A stretch of DNA of 64,000 nt from a virus. The stretch spans positions 32,001-96,000 of the IMG/VR virus record IMGVR_UViG_3300020048_000044. One strand, 5' to 3'. A program made the translations under genes and the position numbers. Below, piece after piece: positions 2,038-46,179 of this stretch. Below the pieces are notes generated by a model. It did not search any database. It had not been told where the DNA came from and was given only the letters and a program-made list of their open reading frames with translations. Numbering within the stretch: position 1 is the stretch's first letter; each line of letters begins with the position of its first letter.

Positions 2038-2346
2038 ATGGATAATAACATTCATCATACACTCCTTGACATGGATGATTTGTATAGAAGACTATCACAT
2101 AGTCAGACATACTATTATCTAATGGGTTTGAGACAAATTAAACATGATGTTGGTCAAACCAAGAGTTGGTTGGAAACTAAACCAAGAACCCTTAGAAATG
2201 AGGAACTTTTATATCTTTCAAATAAAACATTATACTACGTTGATAGGAATATCTATACACTAGAAAATGTCTTAAGATGCTTTGAAACAAAGGTATATGA
2301 AAAACGCACATTATTCAATCGATTTGAAACACTTTGGTTAAACTAA
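2038..2346 (+). CDS. hypothetical protein; its stop codon lies in the first AAC box of the cassette array
   Basis: ORF track; AACTAAC at 2341-2347. Confidence 0.7.
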   Translation: MDNNIHHTLLDMDDLYRRLSHSQTYYYLMGLRQIKHDVGQTKSWLETKPRTLRNEELLYLSNKTLYYVDRNIYTLENVLRCFETKVYEKRTLFNRFETLWLN

Positions 2347-2448
2347 CGGTTGGCAATATGAAACGGTTGCCTAATAAGACGTTTCAAATTTAGTAATAAC
2401 TTGACGGCAACTGTTTTATATTGCTTTAGGTAAAGTAATTTAATTATC

Positions 2449-2661
2449 ATGAAAAAAATAGTAGTAGCTTATTGGAAAGAACGTGATTTAATACCTTACT
2501 TTGAACATAACTCTGAATTTGAATATTCTGTTGAAAAGCAAAGTGAGATAGTAAATATAATAATTGAACGAGGACTATCAGTAATGGTAAGACCTAATAT
2601 AGGAACGTATCAAGATACTTTGCTGATTTATATAGACAAAGGTAGATTTGGACAGTCTTAA
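2449..2661 (+). CDS. cassette ORF 1, hypothetical
   Basis: between elements 1 and 2. Confidence 0.75.
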   Translation: MKKIVVAYWKERDLIPYFEHNSEFEYSVEKQSEIVNIIIERGLSVMVRPNIGTYQDTLLIYIDKGRFGQS

Positions 2662-2765
2662 ATTGTGCCTAACGGTTGAGGCTAAACAATCGTTGCTTTT
2701 CGCAATGTTGTTTTAGCCTGTCTTAGTGGGGCTTTAGCCTTTACAGTTAAATTATTAAAAAAGAC

Positions 2766-2996
2766 ATGGTGATAAAAATAAACAAAATTTATAGAAGCAA
2801 AACAAGCAAGTATAAGATTGTTGAAAGAATTGATTGTGAAAATAATCCTTGTTATCACATTAAATTAGGATATAGGGGAATTTTATATCGTTGGGGTGAA
2901 TTACCAATTCATTACACTTTAGAAGAGGCTAAAATAACAATTCCTAATTTGATAGAATTAGATAAAGATAAACAACGATTTTGGTGGCTTTTTTAA
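2766..2996 (+). CDS. cassette ORF 2, hypothetical
   Basis: between elements 2 and 3. Confidence 0.75.
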   Translation: MVIKINKIYRSKTSKYKIVERIDCENNPCYHIKLGYRGILYRWGELPIHYTLEEAKITIPNLIELDKDKQRFWWLF

Positions 2997-3078
2997 TAAT
3001 TTAATTGCCACTAACGGTTACATATAACTGGTGTTGCCATTTTGAAATACAAATATTAAATTAAAAACAAATATAAAT

Positions 3079-3294
3079 ATGAAAGTAGAAATTAAAATAA
3101 CAGACGAAACTGGCAATGTTCAGTTATATGATGTTATACCATCGTTGTTTACAGAAGAAGGTATTGATAAAATTTTTGCATTTAGTGATGATGTACATTA
3201 TTTGGGGGATTTTATAGATGAAAATAATTGTAAAATTATGAAAGAAGGTGCAAAAATTTTATTACAAAAAATATTAAAAAACAATGTGGTATAA
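3079..3294 (+). CDS. cassette ORF 3, starts inside element 3
   Basis: N-terminus GNVQLYDVIPS is encoded by the hairpin arm. Confidence 0.7.
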   Translation: MKVEIKITDETGNVQLYDVIPSLFTEEGIDKIFAFSDDVHYLGDFIDENNCKIMKEGAKILLQKILKNNVV

Positions 3295-3356
3295 CGACTG
3301 CGTGTATGGAACGTTGCTTACACAGAACTTAATTAGAAACACTAAATTTTAAAAAT

Positions 3357-3569
3357 ATGAATAAAAATAATAAAAAAAATGGGCAGCAATGTGCTATACA
3401 CGATGTTAGCAAACGTTATTTTTTAATTAGAAGATATAATTGTGGAACGTATAATCCACAAACACAAAAAATGGATACAGATATTATTGGTATCACTACT
3501 GATGAAGAATATGCTAAAAGCAGACAATCAGTATTTTGTGGATATGAAGAAGTATGGATGCTGTCATAA
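3357..3569 (+). CDS. cassette ORF 4, starts inside element 4
   Basis: N-terminus QQCAIHDVSKRY is encoded by the hairpin arm. Confidence 0.7.
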   Translation: MNKNNKKNGQQCAIHDVSKRYFLIRRYNCGTYNPQTQKMDTDIIGITTDEEYAKSRQSVFCGYEEVWMLS

Positions 3570-3649
3570 TGTTTGCTAACGTAAAATGTATGGTGTCGTG
3601 GCTGCCATTAATCAAAGCCACATAGTTTCAAAACTTAACAAACTTTAAT

Positions 3650-3844
3650 ATGGAAAACGAACTTTCAAAAACCGAGCAGCCATGCACTATACATAGTGTT
3701 ATGCCTCGTTATTCTTCAATTGATATAGAATCTCAAAAGAAGAAAATAAGGCAAAATTTTGGTATTGGTGTAGATTCACAGTATTTGGCTCAATTATGGA
3801 ATCAACTTCATAAAATGCGTGGTTATGTTTCATATCAACTATAA
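3650..3844 (+). CDS. cassette ORF 5, starts inside element 5
   Basis: N-terminus EQPCTIHSVMPRY is encoded by the hairpin arm. Confidence 0.7.
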   Translation: MENELSKTEQPCTIHSVMPRYSSIDIESQKKKIRQNFGIGVDSQYLAQLWNQLHKMRGYVSYQL

Positions 3845-3896
3845 TGAGGCATAACTCGTTGCTAGCCGCAATTTCAAACTTGAAACCACTAGTTAT

Positions 3897-4130
3897 ATGA
3901 CTGAATACGAGCAAAATATATTAGATAGAATATCTCAATTGATTCATGAGGGTAAATTATCAAACGAGTTCTTGGTTTCAAACTTGAAACTATCATGTGA
4001 TTACCTTAATTTAAAGCGATTATCAGATTATGAGAAGGAAACTGGTAAATCAACTCAAGGTCTTAGAAAACAACATAAAGATAAAATCATTAAAATATGC
4101 GATTTTCAATTATTCATTGATAATGATTAA
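3897..4130 (+). CDS. small putative DNA-binding protein
   Basis: HTH-like LSDYEKETGKSTQGLRK. Confidence 0.5.
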   Translation: MTEYEQNILDRISQLIHEGKLSNEFLVSNLKLSCDYLNLKRLSDYEKETGKSTQGLRKQHKDKIIKICDFQLFIDND

Positions 4131-4194
4131 AATAAATTTGGTATTCTCATTTATTATGTTTACCTTTGTCTTCTAATCAATTAATACTTGTACC

Positions 4195-4497
4195 ATGAAA
4201 GGACGCAAAACAATCAACGTAGACAAATTAAAAGCATTTGCCAATACACAATTAGCACGAACTGATAAAGATGCAACAGAAGACTTTAAAAGTGGTATAT
4301 GCGTGATGTTAGAAAAGGCTTTACACTTGAGTGGAAACTATAAAGGATATAATGACCTTTATTGGATTGAAACTGGTGCTAATGAATGGAGAACCATTGG
4401 CAACGAAACTGAGGTTTGGGAAGTAAAAAAAGATTATATCTATGGTACTCCCGATAGCAAATATCATGGAAACAAATTCTCTAGATTGTATTACTAA
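4195..4497 (+). CDS. hypothetical protein
   Basis: ORF after promoter. Confidence 0.8.
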   Translation: MKGRKTINVDKLKAFANTQLARTDKDATEDFKSGICVMLEKALHLSGNYKGYNDLYWIETGANEWRTIGNETEVWEVKKDYIYGTPDSKYHGNKFSRLYY

Positions 4498-4958: not shown

Positions 4959-5195
4959 ATGAAAATAAAAGAAATTAAATATAAAAGAGGTACGACTAAT
5001 ACCTTTGTTGTTACTTTTATACCAAACTGGTTTGAAAAACTACTTGGTATAAAAGAGCAAGAAGATGAATATAAAGCCAATGGCAATATATATACTTTTG
5101 GTGATGGTCATGTTTATCTTAAAAAAAACGGGGAATTCTTAGGTAATCATAACTATATTGGTGAAGCAATAGATAAATGGCGTAGAAGTTGGTAA
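4959..5195 (+). CDS. hypothetical protein
   Basis: ORF track. Confidence 0.75.
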   Translation: MKIKEIKYKRGTTNTFVVTFIPNWFEKLLGIKEQEDEYKANGNIYTFGDGHVYLKKNGEFLGNHNYIGEAIDKWRRSW

Positions 5196-5283
5196 TTTTT
5201 ATAAAATAATCCATTTATAATTAGGAATTCTCATTTTTTATTCTTACCTTTGTAATCTAATAATTAATCTAAATCCAAAAACA

Positions 5284-5619
5284 ATGGCAAAAATTTACTC
5301 CGCACCAAGCAGCATAACGGTACCAGTATTAGATTTTAAAAATCTTAGTAACTACGATAAAGACTGTGAAAAATTCAAAGCTGAATTATCAGCATTTTGT
5401 TTAGCAAGAAAAAAAGACAAAAATGTTGGAGAGGTTATCAGATTCCAAGTAGCCGATGGTTATGCAGAATATATGGTAGCTAGTACTAAACCAGTAGAAT
5501 TGATTCATTTACCATTTTGGGATTGCTACCAATTTGAATATGCACATTTATTGACCGCCAAGGAAATTCAAGGAAAAATTGACCAAGAAGCCGCATTAGC
5601 TAAATTATTTAAGAAATAA
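5284..5619 (+). CDS. hypothetical protein
   Basis: ORF after promoter. Confidence 0.8.
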   Translation: MAKIYSAPSSITVPVLDFKNLSNYDKDCEKFKAELSAFCLARKKDKNVGEVIRFQVADGYAEYMVASTKPVELIHLPFWDCYQFEYAHLLTAKEIQGKIDQEAALAKLFKK

Positions 5620-5656
5620 ATTTGGAATTGTCATTTTTTTTTCATACCTTTGTAAT

Positions 5657-5800
5657 ATGAAAAAATTAATACTTATATCCACAACAATATTATTCGCATT
5701 ATCATTTGCGACTGTAATATCTAACCTATTCGTTATGGTGTCTTCTAAATCACCATATGCACCGACAGACAAGTATATAACCATTAAAAAGAAACACTAA
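5657..5800 (+). CDS. small leaderless membrane protein (47 aa)
   Basis: ATG 5 nt after TACCTTTG; hydrophobic N-terminal half; TAATG overlap with next ORF. Confidence 0.6.
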   Translation: MKKLILISTTILFALSFATVISNLFVMVSSKSPYAPTDKYITIKKKH

Positions 5801-6084
5801 TGCAGAGACAATTTATTGAAGGTGAATTAAACACAGCAGAAGAACATAATATCAATTCTCTTATCATGTCACAAGCTAGTGACACAGCAGAAAAGCTAAC
5901 AGAATTGGAATGTAAAATAGCTGGTATTCAGTGTTATGTTGTTGAAATGGAGGGTGAAACAGAAGTTTCATCATATACCGAAGAAGCACAAGACATATTT
6001 AATGTTCATTATGATGAACAAATGACCGAATTATATGATTTGTTAAACGCACAATTAAAAGTAATGGAGGTTCAATATGAATAG
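5800..6084 (+). CDS. hypothetical acidic protein
   Basis: ORF track. Confidence 0.75.
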   Translation: MQRQFIEGELNTAEEHNINSLIMSQASDTAEKLTELECKIAGIQCYVVEMEGETEVSSYTEEAQDIFNVHYDEQMTELYDLLNAQLKVMEVQYE

Positions 6085-14401: not shown

Positions 14402-15271
14402 ATGAAAAATACAGACACAACAATTAAAAACATCGACTCGCAACTTGCTGATTTGGTAAGACTTTCGGAAAGCACTGCGGAAAAAATTCATAACCTACGT
14501 GTTTATAAACACAAATTGGAAACACCTAACGAAGGTGATTGGTTCATCGAAAATGATACCAATACTTATTATCAGTTTGTTAACTTTCCAGTTCCAAACG
14601 TAACTGTTGAATTGACACGAAAAGGTAATATTACTCGTTATGGTGTCAATTCATTCAAAAAGAATTTCAGACGTGCCAACGATTCTGAGGTAAAACAACA
14701 CTTAGAATTTCTAGCAAGTAGAGAACCAAAAAAACCAGTTGAAATGGGTAAATGGGTAATAGGTAAATGGACACCAGTTACCAACACATTTGATAATGTT
14801 AGCGTGAATAGTATCATCGTTAAAAAAGATGGTGGTAGACTATATAAAGTTACCAAAATTGAAAATGGTATCTTATTTTTGGATGGTATCACAAAAACTC
14901 GTGAAATATCTATTAAGGATTTAAACGAAAACTTTAAATTGGCTAGTTTTGAACAGTTTAGACAATATAAAAATTTGAAAGCTAGGCATAATGCTGAAAA
15001 AACGCTTGCTTCATGGAGACCCGAAGCTAACCAAGAACCACAAGTTAAACCATTTGATATCACCAAATGTGATTTCTATATGTTAACCATAAGAGGTGAA
15101 CATGGTTCAAAAGTAAGACATACTTCATACGAAATTGCAACAACAGAAGCCAAAAGACTTGCTAAACATGAACAACACCCAGTATATATCATGGGATTGG
15201 TAGCAGTTGCCGAATTAGAAGTAGAAATTTCAACAGTAAAAAAAGAAGTTATTAACATTAAATCTAAATAA
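14402..15271 (+). CDS. hypothetical protein with internally repeated small domain
   Basis: ORF after promoter; two similar modules ending F..A. Confidence 0.75.
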   Translation: MKNTDTTIKNIDSQLADLVRLSESTAEKIHNLRVYKHKLETPNEGDWFIENDTNTYYQFVNFPVPNVTVELTRKGNITRYGVNSFKKNFRRANDSEVKQHLEFLASREPKKPVEMGKWVIGKWTPVTNTFDNVSVNSIIVKKDGGRLYKVTKIENGILFLDGITKTREISIKDLNENFKLASFEQFRQYKNLKARHNAEKTLASWRPEANQEPQVKPFDITKCDFYMLTIRGEHGSKVRHTSYEIATTEAKRLAKHEQHPVYIMGLVAVAELEVEISTVKKEVINIKSK

Positions 15272-30085: not shown

Positions 30086-30322
30086 ATGTTAAGTCCTTTT
30101 TATATTTCAGAACAAAAAATGTTATATCCATATAGAAAATATATGAATAACGAAAATGATGTATATTTGCATATATGTTTTTTAGTTGATAATCGGATTA
30201 AAACTATTGAACAATTACGGGCAATGAGTTTTGTTATATTGAAACGTGAATATTTTACAAATGTCAGTAATGAAGACCTTTACAACGGTTTTTATAATTA
30301 TTTTGTAAAAAACAAAAAATAA
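30086..30322 (+). CDS. hypothetical protein
   Basis: ORF after promoter. Confidence 0.6.
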   Translation: MLSPFYISEQKMLYPYRKYMNNENDVYLHICFLVDNRIKTIEQLRAMSFVILKREYFTNVSNEDLYNGFYNYFVKNKK

Positions 30323-30385
30323 ATTTGTTTTTGTCAAAAATTATATCTATCTTTGCATTCTAATATTAATCAACTAAATTTTATT

Positions 30386-31056
30386 ATGGAAAAAATTAAT
30401 GTTTCAAAGTCTACACGTGTTAATTACTTAATACCTAGCAAAGGTAGGGGTTTATTATATAATGGAATTTATATAAGTCCTTTACGATTAGTCAAAGGTA
30501 ACAGTAAATTAGTTAATATCCTAATTTTTGATTTAACAGCCGTAAAAAGTTGTTTAAATTGTGAGGACTGCAAAAATACTTGTTATGCCGTTAAAGCTGA
30601 ACGTATCTATACTGATACCCTTATTTTTAGAGATACAAACCTTTGTATGGTAAAAAATGATTTACCTTTATTAAAGGAATTAATTTGTAAGCAATTGGAT
30701 AAAACCAAAATTACAAGCCTACGTATACATTCAAGCGGAGATTTTTTAAGCCAAGAGTATATAAATTTTTGGAGTGAAATTATTTCTTTATATCCTAGTA
30801 TAAAATTTTATGCTTATACAAAGGTTGAACAAATTTTGGATTTTTCACAAATACAAACCAATACAAATTTTAACCTTATCAATTCATTAATCGAAAATAA
30901 GGTATTAAATTATGGTAGTTTAGAGTATTGTGAGGACTTGAAAAAACATATAATACATTTATTTGCCCAGCAACAAAAAAACGTAGTGAGATAAAATGTG
31001 GTAAAGAATGTAGTTATTGTATTACTAAAAAGAATGTCTGTTTTATTCAACACTAA
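30386..31056 (+). pseudogene. phage Gp88-like (radical-SAM-related) protein with apparent frameshift near 30941
   Basis: SCLNCEDC..CYA, RIHSSGDF, FYAYTK; Cys-rich tail CPA..C..C..C..CFIQH continues in the -1 frame to 31056. Confidence 0.6.
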
Positions 31057-45198: not shown

Positions 45199-45705
45199 GT
45201 TATATCCAATTTAAGAAACGATTATACATTCCTCATCGTAATCATTAGTTGTAAACTCAATACACGATGATTTTTTAATCATTTCTATTGCTTTTGCTAT
45301 ATTTTTTGAGTGTTCAATAGCCATTTTCTTTTTTTCTAATTCAATTCCAGAATAATAATCTTTCCACGCTTTCCTGTCTTTTGAACACTCATAGCAGAAT
45401 AAATCATTATAATCATCTTCATTCCCTCTTTTTGATTCATAATGTTCGACAATTAAATAATATCCTTTTATTTCTTTCTTACACGTTTTACAAATCATAG
45501 AACCGCACTTGCACGATTCTGAATTTGTTATTTGAGTTGATGTTCCGTATTTTCCCATAATTAAATAAAAACTGGCTATAACCAGTGGTATAGTTAATTG
45601 CCGTGTTTGTACTAATTTGAAGCGTTACCACCCGCTTGTAATTCTGTGTATTTTGATATGGAAGTAGCCCGCATTAGGCAACTAACCATACCACCAACGT
45701 TATTT
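45199..45705 (-). mobile_element. attC-like cassette carrying ORF 45211-45558
   Basis: hairpin element 45574-45705; flanking boxes GTTATAGCC and GGATATAAC (8/9 complementary) on - strand. Confidence 0.6.
45211..45558 (-). CDS. cassette-borne Cys-rich protein
   Basis: CKCG..CKTC..CYEC. Confidence 0.7.
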   Translation of the reverse strand: MGKYGTSTQITNSESCKCGSMICKTCKKEIKGYYLIVEHYESKRGNEDDYNDLFCYECSKDRKAWKDYYSGIELEKKKMAIEHSKNIAKAIEMIKKSSCIEFTTNDYDEECIIVS

Positions 45706-45960: not shown

Positions 45961-46179
45961 ATCAGTTTGTTTTTAGTTGATTAATTGATAAGGCAAAGAT
46001 AGATATAATATTTTACAATTCCAAACTTTTTATTAAAATAATTTATTTTATTTTTAAATTGGTTGAATATCAATGTTTTAAAAAATAAATGAAAAAAAGT
46101 TGCCCAGGAATTTGGTAATTACAAAAACATTTTCTATCTTTGCCCTATCAATTTAATTAACCAACTAAAAAACCTTATT

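Follow-up and report, generated by a model that had tools for sequence, protein, structure and literature searches.

An integron-like array of small gene units, probably of reverse polarity, in a viral genome fragment

The row of small genes at positions 2344-3855 of the window raises the question of whether the hairpins lying between the genes belong to the gene before them or to the gene after them. The window, which is the whole stretch of 64,000 nucleotides analysed here, comes from a virus record of 121.7 kb with 30% GC that is rated 34% complete. In integrons, the textbook gene-capture system, the site follows the gene, and expression is driven from one promoter at the insertion point. 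If such canonical polarity applied here, a cassette would be a gene with its downstream hairpin, the crossover would take place at G^TT, and ATGs in the hairpin loops would be incidental. The initial annotation of the region had proposed the opposite, namely that the hairpin moves together with the gene after it and supplies its start codon and N-terminus. Our analysis indicates that 2344-3855 is probably an integron-like array of five mobile units with this reverse polarity and without a recombinase of its own, accompanied by a sixth, solitary unit at 45199-45702.

The region was found to contain five small co-oriented genes with repeated elements between them, and each of the five units consisted of a hairpin followed by a gene body ending in ..TAAC. 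On the plus strand, an element opens with (C/A)TAAC and a spacer of 5 nt, frequently GGTTG. The hairpin that follows has a left arm 18-20 nt long and a loop of between 5 and 71 nt, and GTTA comes 2-3 nt past its right arm. The gene bodies are bracketed by inverted boxes, GTTA-N6-GT at the start and AT-N6-TAAC at the end. Indeed, an inverted-repeat search detected the arms (I4, I14, and I16) and also a second set of repeats around the gene bodies (I1, I2, and I21).

The left edge of the array is the plus-strand entry box TAAC at 2344-2347, which overlaps the stop codon of ORF 2038-2346, the position at which insertion of the array had been suspected. The box ending there (2334-2347) was also thought to have no partner upstream, and a search for one gave 19 matches against 20.7 expected by chance. 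The modules that follow all lie on the plus strand. Hairpin module E1 (2348-2424; arms 2353-2371 and 2406-2424) forms 17 Watson-Crick and two G.T pairs with a z of -4.5, and its loop contains no start codon. Gene module 1 (2425-2673) has a degenerate start box, TTTAGG.., an ORF of 70 aa at 2449-2661, and the end box ..GTGCCTAAC. E2 (2674-2745; arms 2679-2696 and 2702-2719; z -3.9) has a short loop and precedes gene module 2 (2746-3015), where the start box GTTAAATTATT.. is followed by an ORF of 76 aa (2766-2996) and then by CCACTAAC; the inverted partner of this start box lies at 2985-3007 (I2, 23 nt, 91% complementary). E3 (3016-3132, 117 nt; arms 3021-3039 and 3111-3130) holds the ATG 3079 in its loop, and gene module 3 (3133-3295) extends from GTTATACCATCG to TGGTATAAC, the stop of ORF 3079-3294 being the TAA of TAAC. 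E4 (3296-3404; arms 3301-3318 and 3385-3402, with 15 Watson-Crick pairs, two G.T pairs, and one mismatch) holds the ATG 3357, and gene module 4 (3405-3580) is the body of ORF 3357-3569. Thirteen Watson-Crick pairs and a G.T at position 11 join its box GTTAGCAAACGTTAT, located at 3405, to ATAATGTTTGCTAAC, which ends at 3580. E5 (3581-3697; arms 3586-3605 and 3677-3695) holds the ATG 3650, and gene module 5 (3698-3855), the body of ORF 3650-3844, is bounded by GTTATGCCTCGTTAT and ATAATGAGGCATAAC, with a G.T at position 11.

On the right, the array ends with the TAAC at 3852-3855. The backbone at 3856-3896 (plus strand) carries mini-stems only, as had been anticipated for the sixth site of the row: two of 4-5 bp were found, with -4.3 kcal/mol and a z of -1.5, and the orphan GTTA box at 3892 has no downstream partner. 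The gene at 3897-4130, just past the array, is not a cassette. The solitary sixth unit lies on the minus strand (45199-45702) and begins with TAAC at 45702-45699. Its hairpin arms form 16 Watson-Crick and four G.T pairs, its start box GTTATAGCCAGTTT is at 45582, its end box AAATTGGATATAAC ends at 45199, and its ORF (45558-45211, 115 aa) has an ATG of its own after the box. A PHROGs search found a function for none of the cassette proteins.

Two short motifs recurred in the loops. A AAACTTAA-type motif, found for example at 3330-3350 and 3625-3645 of the window and also upstream of a gene body, here called gene X, in loci L006, L013, L014, and L016 of other phages, precedes the ATG by 15-25 nt. 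Some loops share TTCAAATTTAGTACAAAC (window 2380-2400; 45610-45625 on the minus strand; locus L008). Such motifs might act as signals for translation or as promoter signals, or they might be bound by a protein.

Next to the anatomy, a strand bias was observed. When the five window elements were folded with DNA parameters, the antisense strand was never the more stable of the two, in line with the earlier remark that G-T wobbles stabilise the sense strand. The values for sense versus antisense were -14.6 versus -11.3 kcal/mol for E1, -13.8 versus -12.0 kcal/mol for E2, -10.3 versus -10.1 kcal/mol for E3, -11.3 versus -5.2 kcal/mol for E4, which had the largest gap of the five, and -14.4 versus -12.8 kcal/mol for E5. 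Taken singly, the long-loop hairpins exceeded shuffles by a small margin only (z -1.3 to -2.1), and the weight of the evidence lies in the family. Minimum-free-energy folding of TAAC...GTTA hairpins was too noisy, since it penalises long loops, and gapless scans for arms and for box pairs (14-nt pairs of GTT... with ...AAC, G.T allowed) were used instead. The box-pair scan yielded 10 cassettes in L006 and nine in L007, on one strand only. The 14-nt inverted boxes around genes numbered 8-10 in each of these two loci, against about 0.5 in shuffles (L007 shuffled), and a chance origin of the boxes and hairpins was ruled out by the shuffle controls.

In 39 of 44 distinct box pairs, drawn from about 30 loci, position 11 of the start box was a G.T wobble, always on the coding strand, and the reverse arrangement, T.G, was present at this position in none of the 44. 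These pairs gave the consensus T|GTTR-N6-GT at the start and AT-N6-YAAC|G at the end, and the strings YAACG and TGTTR varied hardly at all among the 44 cassettes. Hairpin wobbles were likewise unequal (58 G.T versus 15 T.G in 25 distinct modules), and the sense strand was the more stable one in 20 of these 25. Since each G.T wobble turns into an A.C mismatch on the antisense strand, the design marks one strand, the coding one, although the recombining strand itself has not been observed. This finding counts against canonical polarity, under which the template strand and not the coding strand should fold better.

A G.T pair on the coding strand fits an mRNA structure as well as single-stranded DNA, and a reading without any dedicated recombinase has to be considered at this point. 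The hairpins would then be regulatory mRNA elements, for example presenters of translation starts or promoter/terminator cassettes resembling the PeSLs of T4-type phages, and the genes would be shuffled by homologous or short-homology recombination of a general kind, acting at the conserved sequences. The structure does lie on the transcribed strand, the loops do hold starts and the conserved AAACTTAA-type motif, and T4-type phages are known to shuffle genes at PeSL repeats (PMC2839356, PMC4122927). However, homologous exchange has no use for gene-specific box pairs that show compensatory changes and a single fixed wobble, and many independent junctions were located in a core of 4-7 nt (TAAC or T|GTT) with unrelated sequence on each side.

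About 40 phage contigs share this design, as do cultured Polaribacter phages; a pattern built from E4/E5 recovered six viral contigs with the same architecture. No close relatives of the phage carrying the window were obtained by megablast or blastn against GenBank phages, the flanking proteins at 2038-2343 and 4195-4494 matched no viral loci, and an AAA protein had only relatives of 29-34% identity. One gene body, gene X (358-370 nt, boxes GTTATGCCCCGTTAT and TAATGGGGCATAAC), was collected in 27 loci, and a search of bacterial genomes gave no match to it.

Unit boundaries could be read from near-identical phages in four comparisons that are independent of one another. L018 carried one extra hairpin-plus-gene unit in comparison with L016/L017 (flanks 99.6-100% identical), with the direct repeat TAACGGT on both sides. 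Polaribacter phage P12002S had one unit more than P12002L (flanks about 99% identical), consisting of a hairpin, a methyltransferase gene, and ..GCTAAC, and located after GGTAAC with the repeat TAACGT. L037 contained an additional 2.5 kb of units in comparison with L036 (99.8% identical), exactly between the TAAC of the shared cassette and the next region. L022 and L028 shared a backbone (93% identical) and a hairpin with gene X (98.8-100% identical), and the shared block started right after the preceding box; downstream of X, L022 had two hairpin-plus-gene units and L028 one, and both ended in ..TAAC followed by the same backbone. In all four comparisons, the hairpin travelled with the downstream gene and the junction lay within TAAC. 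The exact cleavage point within TAAC is inferred; no circles or junctions have been observed.

These comparisons bear out the main proposal of the initial annotation, a cassette made of hairpin, gene, and end box with the crossover at AAC, and they supply, for the element family, the empty-site relatives that it had asked for. For the array in the window, the support for this polarity rests on relatives of the element. They also contradict canonical polarity, since all four recent indels were AAC-bounded and carried the upstream hairpin; no indel of a gene with its downstream hairpin was present among the four pairs examined. Furthermore, the arrays ended with TAAC followed by backbone and had no terminal hairpin. 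In pairs of gene X with at least 99% identity the upstream hairpin was always kept while the downstream one could differ, and this held for copies of X that were 100% identical.

On a longer time scale, the picture was less simple. Copies of gene X with 86-96% identity had unrelated hairpins on both sides, that is, the linkage was lost at 96% identity or below. Homology of X started 1-4 nt before GTT and stopped 0-3 nt after AAC, and in dozens of pairs homology ended within 0-4 nt of the boxes, with unrelated flanks. Similarly, E5 was 81% identical to a hairpin in L007, yet the two lie between different genes. Because the copies of X and the E5 homologue sit among unrelated neighbours, the GTT box must be regarded as a junction too, on a slower time scale, and a model with crossover at AAC only leaves this junction unexplained by itself. 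The polarity originally proposed thus needs the qualification that the GTT box also breaks over longer times, so that leaders and gene bodies reassort. That the GTT box has been a junction is a point in favour of canonical polarity, and inverted boxes around the genes are expected under either polarity; nevertheless, with the recent indels, the array ends, and the folding strand all against it, canonical polarity seems to us very improbable.

The reassortment also suggests a system with two junctions, comparable to the dif modules of Acinetobacter, in which both boxes would be equivalent crossover sites and bodies and hairpins would be independent modules with no preferred unit. Such a system would account for gene X lying behind at least seven unrelated hairpins, for the recurrence of the E5 hairpin, and for the joining of the cassette-4 body of the window to many different leaders. 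On the other hand, each recent event broke only at AAC, the linkage between a hairpin and its downstream gene was kept in all pairs with a gene identity of at least 99%, and the fixed G.T wobble makes the boxes and the strands unequal. The pdif sites of Acinetobacter plasmid dif modules are 28-bp double-stranded sites with conserved XerC/XerD arms and a 6-bp centre. The phage arrays resemble them in that an Xer-family enzyme is involved, any segment between sites can be a module, and inverted site pairs surround genes. They differ in that the phage site is a folded hairpin plus boxes with six variable inner bases, and in that there is a clear preferred unit and insertion point. Conservation is limited to GTTR, to GT at positions 11-12, and to the T/G on the flanks, and the site needs its hairpin; it is therefore not a pdif site. 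We therefore regard equivalent junctions as quite unlikely and retain the hairpin-plus-gene unit with its crossover at AAC. One possible cause of GTT breakage under the latter, which we can only infer, may be rare recombination of the other strand; for attC sites, other-strand recombination is known at low frequency.

At a further junction, hairpin X is preceded by a GTTAGC box, whereas its reverse complement, GCTAAC, is usual (L012 2879-2904 and L028 797-822). Where these loci read GTTAGC, L014 (2585-2904) and L022 (1837-2156) have GCTAAC and an extra cassette, and the tail of the upstream gene differs. The GTTAGC junction is not explained by simple crossover at either box.

A hairpin that precedes its gene may also serve in the translation of that gene. 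Translation starts in all modules were inferred from open frames only. The ATGs at 3079, 3357, and 3650 are indeed located in the hairpin loops of E3, E4, and E5, and the right arms, together with the GTTA boxes, encode in frame the N-termini ..GNVQLYDVIPS, ..QQCAIHDVSKRY, and ..QPCTIHSVMPRY, as the initial annotation had described; every feature listed there was found at the coordinates given. The view that a cassette brings its own leader and start codon extends to the family, in which 16 of 25 distinct hairpin modules had an ATG whose reading frame stays open across the start box and as far as the end box; before gene X, all seven different hairpins supplied one. The long hairpin modules were strikingly constant in length (114-119 nt). 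Among 32 gene bodies whose frame is open beginning with the start box, GTT itself is a codon (phase 0) in 26, and the stop codon was the TAA of TAAC in 14. The protein of window cassette 4 had 19 homologues that align from VSKRY, which corresponds to the start box, to the end, with N-terminal leaders unrelated in sequence and length. A homologue in L038 showed 67% protein identity and letter-identical boxes with a different hairpin. Since the start box is where conservation sets in, with no relatedness among the leaders, the leader peptides look like by-products of the site and not like parts of the proteins.

RNase III-type processing stems were also considered for the hairpins and rejected, since cutting would separate the loop ATG from its gene. 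In L004 (7180-7440), the leader-like peptide motif LPIHNVSHRY, which corresponds to a right arm plus start box, was found some 50 residues into a longer reading frame, and no left arm precedes it; this looks like a fusion that remained after loss of half a hairpin.

We then asked which enzyme could move such units. No tyrosine recombinase was found in the genome carrying the window, of which the 121-kb fragment (34% complete) was available, and none was present in a record with terminal repeats, a 100%-complete record, the complete P12002L, P12002S, or Cellulophaga phage phi12:1. In three phages, G002 (locus L006), L036, and L037, a gene for a tyrosine recombinase of 270 aa was observed (in L006 at 5081-5890, minus strand). 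It begins 49 nt beyond the final TAAC and runs in the same direction as the cassettes. The additional units of L037 lie at the TAAC next to this gene, and new units thus enter beside the recombinase as in integrons. Viewed from the recombinase, the polarity of the sites is integron-like: the insertion point adjoins its gene, and within a cassette the hairpin lies at the end away from it. The genes of the cassettes, however, are all oriented towards the recombinase. The protein matched PF00589 and a SAM-like N-terminal domain. It was nearest to XerA/XerC models, below all cut-offs, and its best solved relatives were archaeal XerA proteins. The integron-integrase model TIGR02249 gave 74 bits (cut-off 265) over the N-terminal half only. 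Judged by these matches, the array-linked enzyme is a small Xer-like recombinase and not IntI, and because of this association the sites are not canonical attC sites, a second qualification to the initial annotation. In bacterial genomes, only one distant match to the recombinase, from Psychromonas, was found.

From the final TAAC up to the ATG of the recombinase gene, a stretch of 49 nt (4952-5000 in L035, L036, and L037) is conserved among phages with recombinases of 66% identity and contains two or three TTAAACC-like repeats. From its sequence and position, this region is a candidate for an attI-like docking site. No attI-like sequence or region of the 49-nt type was found in the genome carrying the window.

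That most array-bearing phages lack a recombinase would again favour a reading in which no dedicated enzyme takes part. Nevertheless, the recombinase lies at a fixed 49 nt from the array end in three phages and insertions accumulate there; together with the confined junctions and the gene-specific box pairs, this leads us to consider shuffling by homology alone unlikely. A different enzyme could be imagined from the elements themselves, which are strand-specific, bear hairpins, and are inserted after a fixed tetranucleotide. These are features of IS200/IS605-type HUH 'peel and paste' transposition, in which the enzyme would recognise the hairpins and insert 3' of TAAC. However, no match to the Y1 transposase (PF01797) was found in five records, complete ones included, the units have paired terminal boxes that are absent from IS200/IS605 elements, and the enzyme found beside arrays is a tyrosine recombinase. 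We find this explanation scarcely credible.

Returning to a unit of hairpin, gene, and end box moved by an Xer-like recombinase, we propose the following mechanism, in which the layout of the units, their strand bias, their boundaries in related phages, and the position of the recombinase gene are observed. A unit comprises a 5-nt spacer, an imperfect hairpin of 16-20 bp, a start box GTTR-N6-GT, the gene body, and an end box AT-N6-YAAC. In an inferred intermediate, with the coding strand folded as single-stranded DNA, the two boxes of a unit would form a 14-bp stem in which position 11 is a G.T, and the hairpin would stack beside this box stem to give a two-part, attC-like site composed of R stem, unpaired spacer, L stem, and variable loop. 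Excision and insertion would occur by crossover in the 5' AAC box of the folded strand, and the hairpin would therefore move with the downstream gene. Because the site lies upstream of the gene, its A-rich loop would be a translation start region, often with an ATG; the right arm and start box would become the first 15-20 codons, and the end box would often give the stop codon. The likely enzyme, also by inference, would be the small tyrosine recombinase of Xer-like type whose gene lies directly behind related arrays; it would act in trans on the array of the window.

Among known systems, the closest kind is the integron cassette, and for the window the CALIN, a cluster of attC sites without an integrase. 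Qi et al. 2023 (PMC9892861) described CALINs from virulent phages, among them Polaribacter phage P12002L. The phage arrays share with integron attC sites and CALINs the inverted AAC...GTT core boxes, the imperfect hairpin, the unpaired spacer, the variable loop, and the complementarity of one cassette's boxes beyond the core, here a 14-nt pairing. They also share small promoter-less co-oriented genes in arrays, insertion beside a tyrosine recombinase gene, and a strand-specific fold. In contrast to integron attC sites, the phage site lies ahead of its gene, and the crossover, in coding-strand notation, is at AAC; the strand that folds is the coding strand here and the bottom or template strand there, with the reservation on the recombining strand made above. 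The R stem of the phage site spans 14 bp and has its G.T fixed at position 11; one spacer measures 5 nt and the other 2-3 nt. The start codon is contained in the loop, and the stop codon often in the end box. Whereas integrons are served by an IntI integrase with the IntI-specific insertion, the enzyme linked to the phage arrays is a 270-aa Xer-like recombinase that falls below the IntI model cut-off and is encoded downstream of the array, co-oriented with it.

The site named P12002L_attC1 was called by HattCI only and was the sole one of six sites without verified IntI1 recombinants in an attC x attI1 assay (PMC9892861). We found that the published primer sequence of this site is the hairpin between gp36 and gp35, which aligns with E2 of the window and is homologous to it. 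The failure with IntI1 agrees with a site that belongs to a different enzyme.

PeSLs of T4-type phages consist of a promoter and a terminator, and exchange takes place by homologous recombination within the repeat (PMC2839356, PMC4122927). Both kinds of element are stem-loop repeats that lie between small accessory early genes of large T4-like phages and mark the borders of swapped genes. The arrays studied here differ in the confinement of their junctions to a core of 4-7 nt, in the gene-specific complementary box pairs, and in the recombinase linked to related arrays. Exchange anywhere in the repeat, as in PeSLs, was not seen, the homology ending at the boxes with unrelated flanks. A literature search found no paper describing an Xer-like system of reverse polarity.

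If the proposed system exists, the folded-site logic of integrons would be used here with the opposite gene polarity, an Xer-like enzyme, and a start codon in the site. Since the site carries the start codon, a captured gene would be translation-ready wherever it is placed in the row. We may extend this to a general proposal, for which we see an even chance, that Bacteroidota phages run a form of gene capture in which an Xer-like enzyme moves coding-strand units, the site serves as a translation start module with an ATG and a throw-away leader, the end box serves as the stop, and the phase-0 rule allows any leader to be joined to any body. Such joining would be a viral counterpart of exon shuffling. 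The system would explain the trade in small accessory genes, including methyltransferases, among phages of Flavobacteriia and relatives, and also why a published phage 'attC' failed with IntI1. P12002L and P12002S, which are cultured and one unit apart, offer a system in which it can be tested. It would further carry a warning for annotation, as the first 15-20 residues of many small phage proteins would be site-encoded and interchangeable.

As for the host, sequences matching the promoter consensus of Bacteroidota, TTTG-N19-TAnnTTTG, were seen, by eye only, at 4140-4190 and, on the minus strand, at 46000-46060; they precede the gene after the array and minus-strand early genes and are not located in loops. 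These promoter-consensus matches point to a Bacteroidota host.

In P12002L (L040), a plus-strand unit at 14622-15197, with an upstream hairpin and a box pair with G.T at position 11, encloses gp24, which is annotated on the opposite strand; this is either a wrong annotation or a rare reverse-oriented cassette gene. The same phage shares a methyltransferase cassette body of about 90% identity (30093-30848) with Cellulophaga phage phi12:1 (L042, 1938-2690). These two phages belong to different genera and have different hosts, and their boxes and hairpins at this cassette are unlike.
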